Of a DNA stretch of 64,000 nt, positions 4,180 to 49,539 are shown piece after piece. Source of the stretch: Escherichia phage ph0021; sequence record OP557970.1, one strand, 5' to 3'. The notes under the pieces were generated by a model. It searched no databases, had not been told where the DNA came from, and saw nothing but the letters and a program-made list of their open reading frames with translations. Positions within the stretch are counted from its first letter, which is position 1; each line of letters opens with the position of its first letter. Made by a program: the position numbers and the translations under genes.

Positions 4180-4383
4180 TTAAACTCTCGTATTATGATC
4201 GATAATTTCATCAAGAAACATATCTAACGCTTCTATAGCATTATCCACTTTAGTTTCAAAGTCTTTAATGCCTTTATTCGAAATACCCGATGAATACCAA
4301 GCAAAGTCAATCAGCTCTTCATCTGCTTTGCGAATTGAAGCCACTAATTCCTTAATTTTATCCGCTTGCTTTTCAGTTTTCAT
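4180..4383 (-). CDS. Hypothetical protein (67 aa) beginning MKTEKQ
   Basis: Internal ATG of ORF 4180..4419 preceded by GGTGGAATA; same 27-bp initiation region as gene at 3993. Confidence 0.5.
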   Translation of the reverse strand: MKTEKQADKIKELVASIRKADEELIDFAWYSSGISNKGIKDFETKVDNAIEALDMFLDEIIDHNTRV

Positions 4384-4571
4384 TATTCCACCACATATGA
4401 CAGAGAGAATATTGCACACGCCATATGCGTTGCAGCTTCATCACACATATTATAACGTTTCTTAAGAAGTTCTACAAGTTCTTCACTAGTAACTTCATCC
4501 ATGTCGACGAAAAAATCACCATTAATGATGACGTAGATATTTCCTTCTTGATTAAGTGCTTCAATTTTCAT
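4383..4571 (-). CDS. Hypothetical protein (62 aa)
   Basis: ORF 4383..4616 trimmed to ATG at 4571, which follows AGGAG and the early promoter leader. Confidence 0.5.
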
Positions 4572-4599
4572 GATGTTCTCCTCTTTATCCGATAGTTGT

Positions 4600-4640
4600 A
4601 TAGTACCACAGCTCAAACGGAAAGTAAACCGGTAAAATGA
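4600..4640 (-). promoter_or_regulatory. T4-type early promoter (GTTTAC, 18 nt, TACTAT)
   Basis: -35 at 4624-4629 and -10 at 4600-4605 on minus strand; conserved leader ACAACTATC. Confidence 0.5.
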
Positions 4641-4661
4641 AAAAAGTCTCCCGAAGGAGAC
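4638..4661 (-). terminator. Rho-independent terminator (UUCG tetraloop)
   Basis: Minus strand GUCUCC-UUCG-GGAGAC followed by UUUUUU, directly after rI.-1 stop. Confidence 0.5.
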
Positions 4662-4666
4662 TAATG

Positions 4667-5053
4667 TTATTCGAGGGAAAGAAGATATTTACTCTGGTAA
4701 AACATTCCAGTAATATCATCTATCGTGCTTTGGATGGCTGGAGGCATTTCTTTATAAATGCTGTTAGATTGATCTAGTATGTGATCAATCATTTTAATTG
4801 TATCGGTAGGAAGTTTACTGGCATCTGGAATAGAAGGCGTGTATTTTCTACCAGAATACCCAAAATATTGCTCACCAAATTTATCAATCAAATCTGGCAA
4901 CTCAGAGAAAATAAAATCGTATGCTTTGTGTCTAGCATAACTTTTAGTTTCAAAATGCGCAGAATGAAAATAAGCTTGTGCAGCCATTAATAAACCTAAG
5001 TATTCATCTGCCTTTGAAGGTTTTCCACTTTGTGAAAAGTCGCTGAATTTCAT
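4667..5053 (-). CDS. rI.-1: RI.-1-like protein
   Basis: 128 aa ORF immediately downstream of rI with 4-nt overlap, as in T4. Confidence 0.55.
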
Positions 5054-5343
5054 TCAGTCTCCAATTTAATGTTCATAATTCTAGCGTATGATTGTGCCAT
5101 CTCCGCGCCTCGCTCTATACATTCAAAATCAGAAGAGCACGGGTCATTTTTATAGGTCGTTCTCATAAAACTATAGAATTGTTCAGACGATTCTACGCTT
5201 TTATTTTCAAAAAGCATATAAACGTGCCTAATACCAGATTCCATAAATTTATCAAAATGAGGATCGACATTCGCTTCAATCGGTGTAGATAAAGCAAACG
5301 CTAATCCTAGCATGGCAAATAGTGCCGTTGCTTTTAAGGCCAT
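5050..5343 (-). CDS. rI: RI lysis-inhibition regulator (periplasmic antiholin)
   Basis: 97 aa; signal peptide MALKATALFAMLGLAFALSTPIEA; matches T4 RI as recalled, same length. Confidence 0.85.
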   Translation of the reverse strand: MALKATALFAMLGLAFALSTPIEANVDPHFDKFMESGIRHVYMLFENKSVESSEQFYSFMRTTYKNDPCSSDFECIERGAEMAQSYARIMNIKLETE

Positions 5344-5355
5344 AAAGGCCTCCTA

Positions 5356-5568
5356 TCATTTTTGTCCTGTATTTACTTTATGCCGATGCACGGCCTTAAC
5401 TTTATCAAGGTATTTTTCAAAATTTCGCAATCTAGTATAGTCTGCCGGAGATTGGTTGAGTGATACTTCTCGACGCAAAGCTGAAATGATATTTCCAACT
5501 TCCCTACGAATTTCATCTAATTGAAGCACAGTAAGATTGCGAAGTTGCTTTTCAGTTAATTGTAGCAT
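5356..5568 (-). CDS. Hypothetical protein (rI.1 position)
   Basis: 70 aa ORF between rI and tk. Confidence 0.5.
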
Positions 5569-5610
5569 ATATACCCCTTTAGTTAGATAAACCTATTTAT
5601 AACTTTTGCA

Positions 5611-6192
5611 CTAACCGAGCTTTTTAGTTAATTCATTCCAATGTTTTCTACACAAAGAAACATAAATTTCATCACCAATACAGATTTGATTACCTTCTTT
5701 AACTGGTGTTCCATCTTCCGTTAATCGAGCTGTCATAATCGCTTTTTTACCACAATGACAAACTGCTTTTAGTTCAATAAGTTTATCTGCAATCGCCAAA
5801 AGTTCTTTAGAACCTTCAAATAATTTTCCAGCGAAATCAGTCCTTAGCCCATAAGCCATAACAGGAACATTATATGTATCAACAATTCGGCTTAATTGAT
5901 ACACTTGTTCAGTTTTTAAAAACTGAGCTTCATCTACAAATACGCAATGAATATCTTTTTGTGCTTCAGCCCATTTATAGAACTCAAAAATATCCATATC
6001 ATCCGTAATAATATTCGCTTCCTGTTTAATTCCAATGCGAGAAACGACTTCACAGACAGAATCGCGAGTATCAATAGCAGGCTTAAGAACTAATACACTC
6101 ATTCCACGTTCTTTATAATTATGTGCAGCAGTCAAAAGAGAAGCAGATTTTCCAGCATTCATTGCTGCGTAAGTAAAAATTAAACTCGCCAT
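5611..6192 (-). CDS. tk: Thymidine kinase
   Basis: 193 aa; P-loop NAGKSASLL, VDEAQF, C-terminal CxCG...C zinc motif; same length as T4 Tk. Confidence 0.95.
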   Translation of the reverse strand: MASLIFTYAAMNAGKSASLLTAAHNYKERGMSVLVLKPAIDTRDSVCEVVSRIGIKQEANIITDDMDIFEFYKWAEAQKDIHCVFVDEAQFLKTEQVYQLSRIVDTYNVPVMAYGLRTDFAGKLFEGSKELLAIADKLIELKAVCHCGKKAIMTARLTEDGTPVKEGNQICIGDEIYVSLCRKHWNELTKKLG

Positions 6193-6201
6193 ATCACCTT
6201 C

Positions 6202-6387
6202 TTAAAGCATATTCACATAAGCTATTAATTCGTTTTCTTTCTTATCAAACCGATCAGCAAATTCTTCTTGCTGTTCGGGAGATAGCGGGCCGTATTCATC
6301 ATAAAAGGTGTTTGCTTCTGTATGCTCATCTAGAAGTTCATGGATAAGCTCAAACAATTTATCTTTTTGTTCTTTACTCAGACTCAT
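6202..6387 (-). CDS. Hypothetical acidic small protein (tk.1 position)
   Basis: 61 aa ORF. Confidence 0.5.
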   Translation of the reverse strand: MSLSKEQKDKLFELIHELLDEHTEANTFYDEYGPLSPEQQEEFADRFDKKENELIAYVNML

Positions 6388-6553
6388 ATATTAATTTCCA
6401 GGAGTTTTAAAATAATTCGCTTTTGCTTAAATATTTCCATAGTTAAATGACCAGTATCTTTTTGACCGATTCCAATGGCAAAACCTTTATTGACAGCGAG
6501 TTCAATTAAATTATCAATCTCACGTAACACTTCATACTGTAACTCAAAACTAT

Positions 6554-6766
6554 TCATTTCGGTTTACCTTCTTTAACGAAATCTGGATAAGGATAAAATC
6601 CCGAATAAAATCCTTCACCTTTATGATTGATGCATCCTTTATTAGAACAATAGCACCAATAATCGAAATCACAAGCCATTTCATCGTTGCATAAAGCAAA
6701 AACAACTGGCCATTTACACTTTTCACAATGGGCATTTTTAAGAATACTAGTTTGGCTCATAACCAT
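6554..6766 (-). CDS. Cys-rich small protein (tk.2 position)
   Basis: 70 aa ORF with 9 Cys; preferred over overlapping ORF 6550..6735 in another frame. Confidence 0.45.
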   Translation of the reverse strand: MVMSQTSILKNAHCEKCKWPVVFALCNDEMACDFDYWCYCSNKGCINHKGEGFYSGFYPYPDFVKEGKPK

Positions 6767-41489: not shown

Positions 41490-44630
<3,141 letters not shown>

Positions 44631-44658: not shown

Positions 44659-46638
44659 ATGACTTTATTATCTCCGGGCATTGAGCTCAAAGAAACCACG
44701 GTTCAAAGCACCGTGGTTAATAACTCTACTGGTACAGCAGCTTTGGCCGGTAAATTCCAGTGGGGTCCTGCTTTTCAGATTAAACAGGTTACAAACGAAG
44801 TAGATTTAGTTAATACTTTTGGTCAACCTACAGCTGAAACTGCTGACTATTTTATGTCTGCGATGAATTTCTTGCAGTACGGAAATGACTTACGAGCAGT
44901 TCGTGCTGTTGATAGAGATACCGCTAAAAACTCATCGCCAATTGCTGGTAATATTGAATACACAATTTCTACCCCAGGTAGTAACTACGCGGTTGGAGAT
45001 AAAATCACGGTCAAATATGTTTCAGATGATATTGAAACTGAAGGTAAAATTACTGAAGTAGACGCAGATGGAAAAATTAAGAAAATTAATATTCCTACTG
45101 CAAAAATTATCGCTAAAGCGAAAGAAGTCGGTGAATATCCGGAATTAGGTTCTAACTGGACTGCGGAAATTTCTTCGTCTTCCTCTGGTTTAGCTGCAGT
45201 AATAACTCTTGGAAAAATTATTACTGATTCTGGTATTTTATTAGCTGAAATTGAAAATGCTGAAGCTGCTATGACAGCGGTTGACTTTCAAGCAAATCTT
45301 AAAAAATACGGAATTCCAGGAGTAGTAGCGCTTTATCCAGGCGAATTGGGCGATAAAATTGAAATTGAAATCGTATCTAAAGCTGACTATGCAAAAGGAG
45401 CTTCTGCATTACTCCCAATTTATCCGGGCGGTGGTACTCGCGCATCTACTGCTAAAGCAGTGTTTGGATATGGACCACAAACTGATTCACAGTACGCTAT
45501 TATAGTTCGTCGCAATGATGCTATTGTTCAAAGCGTTGTTCTTTCAACTAAGCGTGGTGAAAAAGATATTTACGATAGTAACATCTATATCGATGACTTT
45601 TTCGCAAAAGGCGGCTCAGAATATATTTTTGCAACTGCGCAAAACTGGCCAGAAGGCTTCTCTGGAATTTTAACTCTGTCTGGTGGATTATCATCAAATG
45701 CTGAAGTAACAGCAGGAGATTTGATGGAAGCTTGGGACTTCTTTGCTGACCGTGAATCCGTTGATGTTCAGCTGTTTATTGCGGGTTCTTGTGCCGGTGA
45801 ATCTTTAGAAACAGCATCTACTGTCCAAAAACACGTCGTTTCAATTGGGGATGCTCGCCAAGATTGCTTAGTATTGTGCTCTCCTCCGCGTGAAACTGTA
45901 GTTGGAATTCCTGTAACTCGTGCTGTTGACAACTTAGTCAACTGGAGAACCGCAACAGGTTCATACACTGATAATAACTTTAATATCAGTTCAACCTATG
46001 CAGCAATCGACGGCAACTACAAATATCAGTATGACAAATATAATGATGTGAATCGTTGGGTTCCATTAGCAGCTGATATTGCCGGTTTATGCGCAAGAAC
46101 TGATAACGTATCTCAGACTTGGATGTCTCCAGCTGGTTATAATCGTGGTCAGATTCTTAACGTTATTAAACTTGCTATTGAAACCCGCCAGGCTCAGCGC
46201 GACCGTTTATACCAAGAAGCTATCAACCCAGTAACTGGTACAGGTGGCGATGGTTACGTATTGTATGGTGATAAAACAGCTACTTCTGTTCCTTCTCCGT
46301 TTGATCGTATTAACGTTCGTCGTCTGTTTAATATGTTAAAAACGAATATCGGACGTAGTTCAAAATATCGTTTGTTCGAATTAAACAACGCGTTTACTCG
46401 TTCATCATTCCGCACAGAAACTGCCCAATACTTGCAGGGAATTAAAGCTCTCGGTGGAATTTATGAATATCGTGTAGTTTGCGATACAACAAATAATACT
46501 CCGTCAGTAATTGATAGAAATGAGTTTGTTGCAACATTCTACATTCAACCGGCTCGTAGTATAAATTATATCCAACTTAATTTCGTCGCAACTGCTACTG
46601 GTGCAGATTTTGATGAGTTAACTGGTCTTGCAGGTTAA
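44659..46638 (+). CDS. 18: gp18 tail sheath protein
   Basis: 659 aa, T4 gp18 length. Confidence 0.97.
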   Translation: MTLLSPGIELKETTVQSTVVNNSTGTAALAGKFQWGPAFQIKQVTNEVDLVNTFGQPTAETADYFMSAMNFLQYGNDLRAVRAVDRDTAKNSSPIAGNIEYTISTPGSNYAVGDKITVKYVSDDIETEGKITEVDADGKIKKINIPTAKIIAKAKEVGEYPELGSNWTAEISSSSSGLAAVITLGKIITDSGILLAEIENAEAAMTAVDFQANLKKYGIPGVVALYPGELGDKIEIEIVSKADYAKGASALLPIYPGGGTRASTAKAVFGYGPQTDSQYAIIVRRNDAIVQSVVLSTKRGEKDIYDSNIYIDDFFAKGGSEYIFATAQNWPEGFSGILTLSGGLSSNAEVTAGDLMEAWDFFADRESVDVQLFIAGSCAGESLETASTVQKHVVSIGDARQDCLVLCSPPRETVVGIPVTRAVDNLVNWRTATGSYTDNNFNISSTYAAIDGNYKYQYDKYNDVNRWVPLAADIAGLCARTDNVSQTWMSPAGYNRGQILNVIKLAIETRQAQRDRLYQEAINPVTGTGGDGYVLYGDKTATSVPSPFDRINVRRLFNMLKTNIGRSSKYRLFELNNAFTRSSFRTETAQYLQGIKALGGIYEYRVVCDTTNNTPSVIDRNEFVATFYIQPARSINYIQLNFVATATGADFDELTGLAG

Positions 46639-46644
46639 TTGATT

Positions 46645-47283
46645 ATGGGGCTTCGGCCCCTATTCTCGAGGAAACAAGTGATTATTTCTAAGTTTGTTAC
46701 AATAAAACCAAGAAATCATTCAAAAATGTGGTCGACAATTCTGGGATATAAAGTATCATATCATGATACAGTATCTGTTCCAATAGAATTAATGCCAAAG
46801 AATAGTAATAAAATAGTTGACGCTAAATGTGATTTGTGTGGTACTAAATTTAGTAGAAGCATTCAACTTTTAAATAGAACACCCACACATGCATGTAGAA
46901 AATGTAGCATTAAACAAGTTGCTATTAAAAATTCTGAAGTTCAATCTGGAATAAGCAGACCATGGCAAAGAGGTGATAAACATCCTCGATGGACTGGTAA
47001 AAGAAAAGAGTTTGCATTATATGCTAGTAGAGTTCATTCTATAACTAAGTCAGCTAAAATAAGAAAAATCTGGTCAAAATGGCCGAATGCTGATAAAATA
47101 GGAGTGTGTGGCGTAGAAGGTGCTTACCAACTCGATCATAAAGTATCTATCAAATATGGATTTGATAATTTAATTCCGCCGGAAATTATAGCAAGCGTAA
47201 AAAATTTAGAAATAATCACTTGGGAATCTAACCGAGAAAAGTCAAAAAGAAATAGCGTAGATCTTTGGGATTTACTAGAATGA
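46645..47283 (+). CDS. HNH-type endonuclease, probable freestanding homing endonuclease inserted between genes 18 and 19
   Basis: 212 aa from ATG at 46645; N-terminal CxxC...CxxC; C-terminal YQLDHKVSIKYGFDN...NLEIITWESNREKSKRN resembles HNH_3-type motif; T4 has no ORF here. Confidence 0.6.
   Translation: MGLRPLFSRKQVIISKFVTIKPRNHSKMWSTILGYKVSYHDTVSVPIELMPKNSNKIVDAKCDLCGTKFSRSIQLLNRTPTHACRKCSIKQVAIKNSEVQSGISRPWQRGDKHPRWTGKRKEFALYASRVHSITKSAKIRKIWSKWPNADKIGVCGVEGAYQLDHKVSIKYGFDNLIPPEIIASVKNLEIITWESNREKSKRNSVDLWDLLE
46648..46661 (+). other. UUCG-tetraloop hairpin overlapping the start of the HNH ORF
   Basis: GGGGC-UUCG-GCCCC begins 3 nt into the HNH reading frame, just after the gene 18 stop. 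Confidence 0.5.
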
Positions 47284-47289
47284 TTCTAA

Positions 47290-47316
47290 AGGCCTGTTTC
47301 GGCAGGCCATATAAAT
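47290..47316 (+). promoter_or_regulatory. Hairpin plus late promoter (TATAAATA), first of two upstream of gene 19
   Basis: GGCCTG-TTTCGG-CAGGCC at 47290-47307, then TATAAATA at 47309-47316. Confidence 0.5.
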
Positions 47317-47368
47317 ACACTATATCCTTAATTCTTTAATTCTATATGCCCTAGGTTAAACATAGGGA

Positions 47369-47376
47369 TATAAATA
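47369..47376 (+). promoter_or_regulatory. Late promoter (TATAAATA) for gene 19
   Basis: TATAAATA 15 nt upstream of the gp19 ATG, preceded by a short hairpin. Confidence 0.6.
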
Positions 47377-47390
47377 CTACAGAGGCTAAT

Positions 47391-47882
47391 ATGTTTGTAG
47401 ATGATGTAACACGAGCGTTTGAATCTGGTGATTTTGCTCGACCTAACTTATTCCAAGTAGAAATTTCTTATCTTGGACAAAATTTTACGTTTCAATGTAA
47501 AGCCACTGCTTTACCTGCTGGTATTGTAGAAAAAATTCCAGTCGGATTTATGAACCGTAAAATTAACGTAGCAGGCGATCGTACATTCGATGACTGGACT
47601 GTTACAGTAATGAACGATGAAGCTCATGATGCTCGCCAGAAGTTCGTTGATTGGCAAAGCATTGCTGCGGGGCAAGGAAACGAAATTACTGGTGGAAAAC
47701 CTGCAGAGTATAAAAAGAGCGCTATCGTTCGTCAATATGCTCGTGACGCTAAAACAGTAACAAAAGAAATTGAAATTAAAGGTCTGTGGCCTACTAACGT
47801 GGGTGAACTTCAGTTAGATTGGGATTCAAACAATGAAATCCAAACATTTGAAGTAACTCTTGCTCTCGATTATTGGGAATAA
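47391..47882 (+). CDS. 19: gp19 tail tube protein
   Basis: 163 aa, T4 gp19 length. Confidence 0.97.
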   Translation: MFVDDVTRAFESGDFARPNLFQVEISYLGQNFTFQCKATALPAGIVEKIPVGFMNRKINVAGDRTFDDWTVTVMNDEAHDARQKFVDWQSIAAGQGNEITGGKPAEYKKSAIVRQYARDAKTVTKEIEIKGLWPTNVGELQLDWDSNNEIQTFEVTLALDYWE

Positions 47883-47887
47883 AATGA

Positions 47888-49539
<1,652 letters not shown>

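Follow-up and report, generated by a model that had tools for sequence, protein, structure and literature searches.

ORF19.1 of Escherichia phage ph0021, a probable free-standing HNH-type homing endonuclease gene between the tail sheath and tail tube genes

Escherichia phage ph0021 carries an open reading frame between its tail sheath gene (gene 18) and its tail tube gene (gene 19) that, judged by sequence and position, is the same gene at the same place as ORF19.1 of phage T6. We consider it probable that ORF19.1 belongs to the free-standing homing endonuclease genes, with a nuclease of the HNH (His-Me finger) kind; most likely, it encodes a selfish DNA-cutting enzyme of a sort that is ordinary for T4-like phages. 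All positions refer to the window, i.e., the whole stretch of 64,000 nucleotides that was analysed, in which no paralogue of ORF19.1 was found elsewhere. The main features of the locus are as follows:

44659-46638, plus strand: gene 18 (tail sheath), left flank of the insertion
46639-47282, plus strand: insert relative to T4, 644 bp; T4 has TACGGTGC here
46678-47283, plus strand: ORF19.1 coding sequence, GTG start, 201 aa, TGA stop at 47281-47283
46678-46947, plus strand: N-terminal CxxC...CxxC treble-clef-like zinc-finger domain (C51, C54, C73, C76), presumed DNA-binding/specificity module
47101-47247, plus strand: C-terminal HNH-like beta-beta-alpha core (D153, H154, N176, N185)
47391-47882, plus strand: gene 19 (tail tube), right flank of the insertion

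The predicted protein is identical to that of T6 ORF19.1 (MH550421), and the two coding sequences differ at three synonymous sites. Its assignment to the phrog_5104/T6 ORF19.1 family follows from a full-length profile match (E = 4e-82; residues 14-213 of the 214-aa version of the ORF, starting at the residue encoded by GTG 46678) together with its position between the sheath and tube genes. In existing records, the gene is annotated as 'ORF19.1' or 'hypothetical protein' and the PHROG as 'unknown function', and a few recent records name homologues 'HNH endonuclease'. A literature search on ORF19.1 (gp19.1) and the 18-19 junction returned nothing on ORF19.1, including no published cleavage, homing or expression data. 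Petrov et al. (2010) counted one 'other HNH' gene in T6, its position not being given.

Alignment of the 18-19 junction with T4 and other T-even phages revealed precise boundaries of the insert: 644 bp in ph0021 stand in place of TACGGTGC in T4, and the cassette starts right behind the gene 18 stop codon. In it, a UUCG hairpin and a ribosome-binding site precede the 201-aa ORF with its GTG start; the GC content is 33.2% vs 39-40% for genes 18 and 19. The T4 junction is a 116-bp spacer that harbours no gene and is identical in bases to window positions 47283-47390. The preliminary description of this DNA had stated that T4 has no gene between 18 and 19 and had taken the ORF for an optional insertion, and both views proved correct. 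Indeed, in a census of about 498 Tequatrovirus records, 382 junctions were empty, 69 carried a T6-type (type A) and 48 an RB3-type (type B) ORF; the ORF is absent from about 77% of the records, and the empty site is clean and uniform. The same presence/absence polymorphism can be found in another genus, where VR26 possesses the ORF and two close relatives lack it.

The history of the ORF differs from that of its neighbours. Phages with 90-100% identity in the gp18 and gp19 flanks have ORFs that are 39-57% identical, and the Spearman correlation is 0.40 for ORF vs flank identity and 0.77 for one flank vs the other; judged from these sequence comparisons, ORF19.1 is evolutionarily uncoupled from the flanking genes. 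T6-type and RB3-type alleles exceed 93% nucleotide identity in the leader and over the last ~240 bp, whereas the central ~370 bp are unalignable, the N-terminal zinc-finger part being replaced in the RB3-type allele. Among type-A copies, synonymous changes exceed non-synonymous ones (22 vs 4 in four of five comparisons) and the ORF is intact in all nine copies, which we count in favour of the homing reading. A precise presence/absence polymorphism between conserved genes and a history uncoupled from the flanks are among the features by which free-standing homing endonuclease genes are recognized, and both are found here.

Two positions upstream of the insertion vary with the presence of the insert:

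46581-46587, plus strand: two insert-linked synonymous positions in gene 18, 46581 T (-58) and 46587 C (-52)

The gene 18 codons at this site read AAT TTC GTC with the insert vs AAC TTC GTA or GTT in insert-free genomes. Both sites are perfectly linked to the insert in a comparison of 9 insert-bearing and 11 insert-free loci, a small and phylogenetically non-independent sample; the right flank is invariant in the loci compared. The linkage may reflect co-conversion or immunity and is also compatible with plain physical linkage; as a point against the homing view, it is perhaps mere tight physical linkage.

The leader of the ORF contains the following elements:

46645-46647, plus strand: in-frame ATG at the hairpin foot, not a functional start
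46647-46660, plus strand: GGGGC-UUCG-GCCCC hairpin, inside the insert, 8 nt past the gene 18 stop
46668-46671, plus strand: GAGG ribosome-binding site, 6 nt ahead of GTG 46678, present in 9 of 9 leaders

The hairpin after the gene 18 stop had been recognized in the preliminary description and is indeed present at 46647-46660 (-10.8 kcal/mol, with 4 of 200 shuffles equally stable). The start codon had been placed at its foot, which does not hold. Three ORF lengths are possible, i.e., 214 aa from TTG 46639, 212 aa from ATG 46645 and 201 aa from GTG 46678. ATG 46645 is missing in PP01, ECML-134 and ECO07P1 (3 of 9 leaders), and in vB_SsoM_113 it is replaced by GTG and out of frame through an extra C. 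As the ATG is absent or out of frame in these relatives, the hairpin does not hold the start codon. In contrast, the hairpin (with its UUCG loop and at least 5 G-C pairs, in both alleles), the GAGG and GTG 46678 are all kept in the nine leaders compared. Furthermore, the upstream extension is not conserved among homologues, those without it starting with MIISK or a similar sequence, and the T6 GenBank record bears the note 'likely begin by GTG'. On this comparative evidence, the real start of ORF19.1 is GTG 46678, with GAGG upstream.

The proposal that the hairpin limits translation from the gene 18 transcript, as in other T4 homing endonuclease genes, likewise found no support: the core stem ends 7 nt before GAGG, and there is no late promoter within or next to the hairpin. 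A weak outer stem could lengthen the hairpin to 46639-46669; this marginal stem (about 1 kcal/mol) reaches only the first two bases of GAGG. The hairpin was also considered as an intrinsic terminator and rejected, the T-run being absent and a terminator scan having returned no sites. Note that the hairpin of the cassette occupies the place after the gene 18 stop that is held by a native UUCG hairpin in T4. GCTTCGGC occurs 8 times in the window vs 0.57 expected (~14-fold enrichment).

The late-promoter motifs around the ORF are distributed as follows:

44623-44630, plus strand: TATAAATA late-promoter motif upstream of gene 18, the nearest upstream of the ORF on either strand
47291-47317, plus strand: native hairpin GGCCUGU-UUCG-GCAGGCC (47291-47308), then TATAAATA (47310-47317); identical in insert-free T4
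47347-47376, plus strand: second native hairpin CCCUA/UAGGG, weak (47347-47365), then TATAAATA (47369-47376), just 5' of gene 19; identical in T4

A motif scan of both strands found no TATAAATA between 44631 and 47309, and ORF19.1 therefore has no late promoter of its own. Downstream of the ORF, the two hairpin and TATAAATA modules that had been reported before are present, with TATAAATA at 47310 and 47369. They had been interpreted as a promoter duplication left by a mobile cassette. This interpretation fails, since both modules are native and identical in insert-free T4 and the insertion thus did not duplicate promoters. In fact, the two modules have only the ATATAAATAC motif in common; the first hairpin folds with -12.8 kcal/mol (z = -3.7), and the second (-7 kcal/mol, z = -1.5) is indistinguishable from chance.

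The N-terminal part of the protein contains the CxxC...CxxC pair that had been noticed before, C51/C54 (46828-46839) and C73/C76 (46894-46905; numbering from GTG 46678). These cysteines are invariant or nearly invariant among homologues. The domain is modelled by AlphaFold with a pLDDT of 93-96, and DUF4379 (Pfam) is weakly matched by 14 of 42 family members.

In the C-terminal part, D153-H154 (47134-47139), N176 (47203-47205) and N185 (47230-47232) are invariant in three family alignments (42, 31 and 48 sequences), distant metagenomic members included, and D, H, N and N account for four of only six invariant positions in the 48-sequence alignment of the C-terminal domain. The AlphaFold model (pLDDT 88.9) has a strand at 150-154, a strand at 177-181 and a helix at 182-190, i.e., a predicted beta-hairpin followed by an alpha-helix with the conserved D-H, Asn and helix Asn that characterize HNH/His-Me finger domains. 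Matches in a viral structure library were named 'HNH endonuclease', 'Endonuclease-like' and 'Homing endonuclease' (E 2.5e-5 to 4e-3). Furthermore, the endonuclease VII PHROG was matched by 10 of the 48 C-terminal domains (best E = 3e-7) and HNH PHROGs by 4 (together 14 of 48, E 3e-7 to 5e-4), with the catalytic region covered in the members examined; the C-terminal domain of ORF19.1 itself gave no match to these PHROGs. Of ten short relatives, four showed sub-threshold matches of Pfam HNH or HNH_4 (E 0.02-0.7) at the expected region, and four relatives were named McrA by JGI.

No significant match to a curated HNH profile (Pfam PF01844, PF13392, PF13395, PF02945; NCBIfam) was obtained for ORF19.1 or the relatives scanned, and three of the four classical HNH core zinc cysteines are absent. 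Pfam searches with ORF19.1 and sets of 42 and 31 relatives revealed no HNH match and only weak zinc-finger families, NCBIfam gave nothing meaningful for the C-terminal domains, a PDB sequence search with the full-length profile returned zinc fingers only, and Foldseek found nothing below E = 0.3 for the full model in the PDB. With hhalign, the family profile scored non-significant probabilities of 0.6% against GVE2 ORF43, possibly the wrong GVE2 protein, and of 3.4% against an approximate sequence of the Cas9 HNH segment, in which Y-x-[LV]-D-H was aligned. Leucine-rich-repeat matches of the C-terminal profile in the PDB ('IPPEIIGxIxNLQ') were judged spurious (short and recurring, no single stretch significant), and DUF7487, found in two distant relatives, was rejected as the nuclease-domain family, for it maps to the N-terminal part. 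The link to HNH is drawn from the fold comparison and from weak or transitive profile matches, without a Pfam match; from sequence and model, the HNH identity of ORF19.1 is supported, though not by Pfam. The C-terminal HNH-like motif of the preliminary description thus stands as far as DH...N...N is concerned, but the Pfam HNH match expected for an endonuclease is absent. Of the two findings named there as refuting the idea, the presence of the ORF in T4 was not observed, whereas the lack of a Pfam HNH match was.

Relatives that share the C-terminal domain carry NUMOD3, helix-turn-helix or other zinc-finger modules. Three of their loci lie just 3' of a gp23 homologue and one 3' of a DnaB-type helicase (gp41 homologue); another relative is located between Mre11-like and Rad50-like genes (gp46/47 homologues), and one relative is then followed by a second ORF, of the HNH_3 type. 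Such core-gene neighbours and swappable modules are typical of free-standing homing endonucleases.

Late in infection, transcripts that start at the late promoter of gene 18 and read through the hairpin would include the gene, and translation would begin at GTG 46678. In a cell co-infected by an insert-free phage, the zinc-finger domain would then bind at the empty 18/19 junction of that phage or close to it, and the HNH domain would nick or cut at the bound site. Recombination-dependent repair, as used by T-even phages, could copy the cassette, together with flanking bases in close linkage, from the genome that carries it. The carrier genome would be protected by the splitting of the site through the insertion, by the -58/-52 changes, or by both. 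The cassette hairpin probably replaces the stable stem-loop that is normally present 3' of gene 18 and may damp read-through into the ORF, without hiding the start codon.

Alternatively, ORF19.1 could be an accessory gene long resident in the T4 superfamily and passed on vertically with many losses (including that in T4), whose nuclease serves the phage by excluding competitors, attacking host or rival DNA late or processing DNA rather than propagating itself by homing. The gene order 17-18-ORF-19-20 is indeed found in about 40 of 80 metagenomic viral loci, as well as in phiM7, AS-zj and Bp7. Against the homing view, the ORF keeps its place between genes 18 and 19 down to gp18 identities of only 34-50%; at such distances, a fixed DNA target cannot be conserved, and therefore long vertical residence with repeated loss could explain part of the distribution. 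In several marine relatives, the gene 18 stop and the start of the ORF overlap, which resembles an integrated gene and also speaks against homing, and the excess of synonymous changes would suit a resident gene as well. However, a resident gene agrees poorly with its absence from some three quarters of Tequatrovirus records at a uniform, clean site, with alleles so divergent inside nearly identical flanks, with the swap of the N-terminal half between alleles, and with relatives that possess DNA-binding modules of the homing endonuclease type and sit at other core-gene junctions. Moreover, exclusion of competitors through site-specific cutting is, mechanistically, homing. We therefore regard a purely resident gene as unlikely.

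Loss of activity has to be considered as well: the gene may once have spread by homing and now be non-cutting, drifting or hitch-hiking, like the defunct I-TevIII of T4. The loss of the classical zinc cysteines, the missing Pfam HNH match, the GTG start and the absence of an own promoter would fit such decay, as would the relatives L049 and L061, which are pseudogenised with in-frame stops, and a perhaps truncated 106-aa relative in Salmonella phage S16. But the ORF is intact in all nine copies examined, D-H...N...N is invariant in all three alignments up to distant metagenomic members, synonymous changes predominate, and the T6 protein is identical in spite of the three synonymous differences, so that we rate an inactive gene as quite improbable. 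Finally, the protein could be no nuclease at all, i.e., a zinc-finger nucleic-acid-binding protein such as a late regulator of 18/19 transcripts, with D-H...N...N being coincidental or structural. The profile matches of ORF19.1 itself (weak, and to zinc-finger families only), the Foldseek search of the PDB without an HNH match and the non-significant hhalign comparisons with two single HNH sequences are in line with this. Yet four of the six invariant C-terminal residues are exactly the HNH catalytic set, the N-to-N spacing is that of Cas9-type HNH domains, the endonuclease VII and HNH PHROG matches cover the D-H...N...N region, and a constant C-terminal domain combined with variable DNA-binding modules corresponds to a nuclease whose targeting domains can be exchanged. 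A non-nuclease is in our opinion highly improbable, and a free-standing homing endonuclease gene is the reading that we prefer.

A broader scenario is put forward tentatively, with somewhat less than even confidence. ORF19.1 could belong to a large, experimentally uncharacterised HNH-type clade that lacks the classical core cysteines, has no Pfam model for its catalytic domain and combines a constant C-terminal catalytic domain with interchangeable N-terminal DNA-binding modules. Its treble-clef branch would have been kept at the sheath/tube junction throughout the T4 superfamily, in phages of Sinorhizobium and Aeromonas and in marine phages as well as in coliphages, by repeated allele replacement. 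The two Tequatrovirus alleles, which agree in the catalytic half and differ in the binding half, would on this view compete at a single site as endonucleases that prefer different targets.

The main value of these results lies in the correct annotation of ORF19.1. In hundreds of T4-like records this gene is called 'hypothetical protein' or, worse, 'holin' or 'type II restriction endonuclease', and its start codon is wrong in many of them. If the protein truly cuts DNA, its domain order (zinc finger ahead of HNH) and its target in the tail-gene cluster would both be new among homing endonucleases, and its action would help to account for the mosaicism and marker exclusion seen near genes 18-19 when T-even phages are crossed. 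The T6/RB3 allele pair would then represent a natural experiment in which a swapped binding domain retargets a fixed nuclease domain. Nevertheless, ORF19.1 is an uncharacterised example of a known gene type and opens no new category of systems.

Like the seg (GIY-YIG) and mob (HNH, e.g., mobE) genes of T-even phages, ORF19.1 is an optional ORF between conserved essential genes with a sporadic distribution among close relatives, and it shares with them a (putative) nuclease combined with a DNA-binding module, (presumed) late expression and linked flanking polymorphisms. T4 segD is located just 3' of gene 23, as is one member of the ORF19.1 family. Unlike seg and mob products, ORF19.1 has no match to GIY-YIG or to Pfam HNH_3, the family covering the Mob and I-HmuI type, and its cleavage and homing are putative. 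In the Mob and I-HmuI type the nuclease domain is N-terminal, whereas in ORF19.1 the zinc finger comes first and the nuclease-like domain last. We thus rejected ORF19.1 as a mob-family member, for lack of an HNH_3 match and in view of this domain order.

The active-site arrangement resembles that of the HNH nicking endonuclease Gme of Geobacter (4h9d), the HNH protein of phage GVE2 (5h0o), Cas9 HNH and McrA, in which strand 1 ends with D-H, strand 2 is preceded by an Asn and the helix contains another. The 9-residue spacing between N176 and N185 is the same as that between N854 and N863 of SpCas9. In contrast to these small HNH nucleases, ORF19.1 gives no significant profile match, is without three of the four core zinc cysteines, has a longer insert (~22 residues) between H and the first N, and combines the HNH-like domain with a treble-clef zinc finger.

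C(UUCG)G intercistronic hairpins of T4 were reportedly described by Tuerk and co-workers in 1988. The leader hairpin of ORF19.1 has the same tetraloop and closing pair but, unlike them, travels with the cassette. Among hairpin-controlled endonuclease genes, Edgell et al. (2010; PMC2988022) listed I-TevI, I-TevII, I-TevIII, segB and Aeh1 mobE. ORF19.1 resembles these genes in the very stable hairpin just 5' of it. In the classical cases, however, the ribosome-binding site is inside the hairpin and is freed by an internal late promoter, whereas GAGG of ORF19.1 lies beyond the core stem and a late promoter is absent nearby. Control of the I-TevI, Aeh1 mobE or segB type was rejected for ORF19.1, as its ribosome-binding site and start lie outside the core stem (46647-46660). 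The layout matches instead that of seg43(25) of Aeromonas phage 25, the exception among these genes, in which the hairpin is located directly 5' of the ribosome-binding site and does not sequester it (Edgell et al., 2010; PMC2988022).

ORF19.1, the optional reading frame between the tail sheath gene 18 and the tail tube gene 19, is named after its counterpart in phage T6 and has long been deposited under that name. The window is a T4-type phage genome; over 46300-47700 it shows 100% identity to the record 'Pseudomonas phage PsgM02F', and T6, PST, PP01 and many further Tequatrovirus genomes match it at 98-99%. The features of the locus are as follows.

44627: end of gene 17
44659-46638: gene 18, tail sheath
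46647-46660: hairpin GGGGC-UUCG-GCCCC, -10.8 kcal/mol
46668-46671: GAGG box, present in 9 of 9 insert-bearing genomes
46678: GTG start of ORF19.1, present in 9 of 9 insert-bearing genomes
47281-47283: TGA stop of ORF19.1, between genes 18 and 19
47391-47882: gene 19, tail tube, followed by gene 20

As the preliminary description stated, T4 has no gene here, only a 116-bp spacer. Alignment of the junction to T4 set the edges of the insert: the common sequence runs through the gene 18 stop codon and resumes at ATTCTAAAGG, and 46639-47282 (644 bp) replace the 8 bp TACGGTGC of T4. The insertion itself and the HNH-like nature of its product are supported. The two hairpin plus TATAAATA modules downstream of the ORF are present as well, but they had been read as a promoter duplication left by the insertion, and they are native to insert-free T4. 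Every base of 47283-47390 is as in the T4 spacer, and ten other insert-free genomes examined are identical or differ by one or two substitutions; furthermore, only the ATATAAATAC motif is common to both modules, their hairpins being unrelated. These two observations rule out a duplication or insertion relic.

PsgM02F (OR584013.1) is listed with Pseudomonas coronafaciens as host, yet its sequence is typical for Tequatrovirus. T4-type sequence of this region is also found in 'Pseudomonas phage vB_PSGBLB0006' (PV654520.1) and in the 32-kb record 'Staphylococcus phage SAJK-IND' (MG010123.1); these host labels look like contamination or mislabelling. Note also that the gene 20 frame is open for 75 nt (47888-47962) upstream of the T4-type start (MKFNVLSLF at 47963). 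A TATAAATA motif (47930-47937) falls inside this extension, so translation probably does not begin at the mechanically called start, 47888.

The protein contains the two CxxC pairs and the HNH-like motif DHKVS...NLEIITWESNREK noticed earlier. However, the Pfam search proposed as a check gave no HNH match for ORF19.1 or for any of the 42 close and 31 distant relatives scanned; it gave only weak matches to a treble-clef zinc finger (DUF4379). NCBIfam returned nothing, PDB sequence searches returned zinc fingers and a spurious leucine-rich-repeat likeness with no HNH, and Foldseek found no match in the PDB. Sequence profiles alone therefore do not make ORF19.1 an HNH nuclease. The residues D153, H154, N176 and N185 are invariant in the alignments of the 42 close relatives, the 31 distant relatives and 48 C-terminal domains, and they represent four of the six invariant positions in the last of these. 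In the structure model, a confident one (pLDDT 88.9), D-H ends the strand 150-154, N176 opens the next strand (177-181) and N185 lies within the following helix (182-190), so that the C-terminal core is predicted to have the beta-beta-alpha metal topology. In a viral structure library, the best matches are members of the family itself, along with a few entries that are unnamed or unrelated; behind these come proteins carrying the names 'Endonuclease-like', 'HNH endonuclease' and 'Homing endonuclease', with E values of 2.5e-5 to 4e-3. A PHROG named endonuclease VII is matched by 10 of the 48 C-terminal domains (best E = 3e-7) and HNH PHROGs by four further ones, the matches covering the catalytic region in the members examined; T4 endonuclease VII belongs to the His-Me finger enzymes. 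In 4 of 10 short relatives, this region also has sub-threshold Pfam HNH or HNH_4 matches, and McrA is the JGI name for four relatives.

One short homologue, M1HDJ8 of Salmonella phage S16 in BFVD (106 aa, 62% identity to part of ORF19.1), superposes well on the ORF19.1 model (TM-score 0.88 over its own length). A length of only 85-120 aa is also seen in several metagenomic relatives. Such proteins may represent truncated copies or domains that stand alone.

Among about 498 Tequatrovirus records, the 18/19 junction is empty in 382, whereas 69 carry the allele of the window (T6-type) and 48 a second, RB3-type allele. The two alleles share >93% nucleotide identity in the leader and the last ~240 bp, but their central ~370 bp, encoding the N-terminal domain and the zinc finger, cannot be aligned, and the proteins are 49% identical (tblastn). 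The same presence/absence pattern recurs in another genus, in which VR26 has an ORF cassette and two close relatives have a ~200-bp spacer; the VR26 cassette differs in its edges from that in Tequatrovirus and lies downstream of a shared late promoter. Homologues occupy the sheath/tube junction in RB3, Bp7, Aeromonas phage AS-zj and Sinorhizobium phage phiM7, as well as in about 40 of 80 metagenomic viral loci, with gp18 identity down to 34-50%. ORF identity hardly follows flank identity (Spearman 0.40, versus 0.77 for gp18 against gp19), and in some pairs the ORFs are just 39-57% identical between flanks of 90-100% identity, which argues for allele turnover at this site rather than simple vertical descent.

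Bp7 (4269-6481) has, besides its ORF19.1 homologue, an annotated HNH endonuclease gene between genes 19 and 20, and the annotation splits its portal gene into gp20' and gp20, pointing to another endonuclease insertion within this structural cluster. In phiM7 (4639-6750), the gene following the homologue is labelled 'tail protein' and measures 2112 bp (about 704 aa), compared with 163 aa for the tail tube protein of T4. The phiM7 product might have arisen by fusion or insertion, or it might be another protein.

In distant relatives, the C-terminal domain is joined to NUMOD3, helix-turn-helix, sigma-70 region 4-like or other zinc-finger modules. Such module-swapped genes lie directly downstream of a gp23 (major capsid) homologue in three loci (L080, L100 and L094, 3024-4239); in L094 a second, HNH_3-type endonuclease ORF comes next, so that endonuclease genes are stacked at one junction. 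Another lies downstream of a DnaB-type helicase gene, and one between Mre11-like and Rad50-like genes. These sites and modules are the usual ones of free-standing homing endonuclease genes in T4-like phages. At the right flank, insert-bearing and insert-free genomes are alike and essentially invariant. On the left, gene 18 has two synonymous sites (46581 and 46587; -58 and -52 counted from its end) that follow the insert without exception in 9 insert-bearing and 11 insert-free loci, reading AAT TTC GTC with it and AAC TTC GTA/GTT without it; the loci are not independent of each other. This association fits co-conversion or target immunity, and simple linkage could also produce it.

The cassette is compact, optional and uncoupled from its flanks. 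It has a hairpin and a ribosome-binding site ahead of an ORF that starts with GTG and encodes a two-domain protein with conserved HNH catalytic residues. We consider it likely that the cassette works by homing. ORF19.1 would be transcribed late by read-through from the gene 18 promoter; its zinc-finger domain would bind at the empty junction, or close to it, in a co-infecting insert-free phage, the HNH domain would nick or cut, and recombinational repair would copy the cassette and nearby bases. The carrier would be protected by the splitting of the site or by the two linked changes.

A vertically inherited accessory nuclease with a role serving the phage would agree with the deep synteny and with the overlap of ORF start and gene 18 stop in marine relatives; given the turnover of alleles, we regard it as unlikely. 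Still less probable is an inactive remnant. Copies of the family that are likely decaying do exist among metagenomic homologues, as in-frame stop codons indicate (two in L049, 3387-4124; one in L061, 1686-2600, with L062 giving the same match), whereas ORF19.1 is intact in all nine copies examined, and type-A copies differ by 22 synonymous versus 4 non-synonymous changes in four of five comparisons (6 versus 4 in the fifth). That the protein is a zinc-finger protein without nuclease function, as the Pfam and PDB matches taken by themselves might imply, appears least probable of all beside the invariant catalytic residues.

ORF19.1 is an uncharacterised member of a familiar kind: it falls in phrog_5104 (function field: unknown), and our literature search found no paper characterising it. 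Almost all database names read 'hypothetical protein'; 'HNH endonuclease' is used for a few homologues, and 'holin' and 'type II restriction endonuclease' each appear in single records. At the level of the family, the picture adds modestly to what is known and is no surprise: a clade outside the Pfam models with a constant nuclease domain and swappable binding modules, one branch of which keeps to the sheath/tube junction across the T4 superfamily.

The hairpin reported after the gene 18 stop exists, but the ATG at its foot, formerly taken as the start codon, is not kept among the nine insert-bearing genomes: it is absent from PP01, ECML-134 and ECO07P1, and vB_SsoM_113 has GTG instead, out of frame through an extra C. 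Hairpin, GAGG and GTG 46678 are all retained in the nine leaders. Homologues without an upstream extension start with MIISK or close variants, the extensions added by gene callers show no conservation, the PHROG profile match starts at the GTG residue, and the T6 GenBank entry carries the remark 'likely begin by GTG'; the protein therefore has 201 aa.

The insert hairpin is of the C(UUCG)G type, which is abundant between T4 genes; accordingly, its core GCTTCGGC occurs 8 times in the window (1388, 14353, 46650, 50888, 55075, 56223, 56742, 59628) versus 0.57 expected by chance. A UUCG loop is also present in the native hairpin that follows gene 18 in T4. The cassette probably brings its own substitute for this stem-loop, and the substitute may in addition limit read-through into ORF19.1. 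The expression set-up of homologues varies between lineages: in some enterobacterial relatives (L038 and L040, just upstream of 3501), the ORF is directly preceded by a TATAAATA of its own and gene 18 is followed by a strong hairpin, and in several marine ones (L025, L026, L027, L045) the stop codon of gene 18 and the start of the ORF overlap.

Hairpin-based translational control, as first proposed, is not supported. In I-TevI, segB and Aeh1 mobE, a hairpin encloses the binding site, and a late promoter inside the hairpin releases it. This classical arrangement is absent here, because the ribosome-binding site lies 7 nt past the core stem (a marginal outer stem UUGA/UCGA of about 1 kcal/mol reaches only its first two bases) and the motif scan found no TATAAATA between the gene 18 promoter motif (44623) and 47310. 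An exception among known systems is seg43(25) of Aeromonas phage 25, with a strong hairpin just upstream of an unhidden binding site (Edgell et al., PMC2988022), and the layout of ORF19.1 agrees with it: a strong hairpin stands right before a binding site left exposed.
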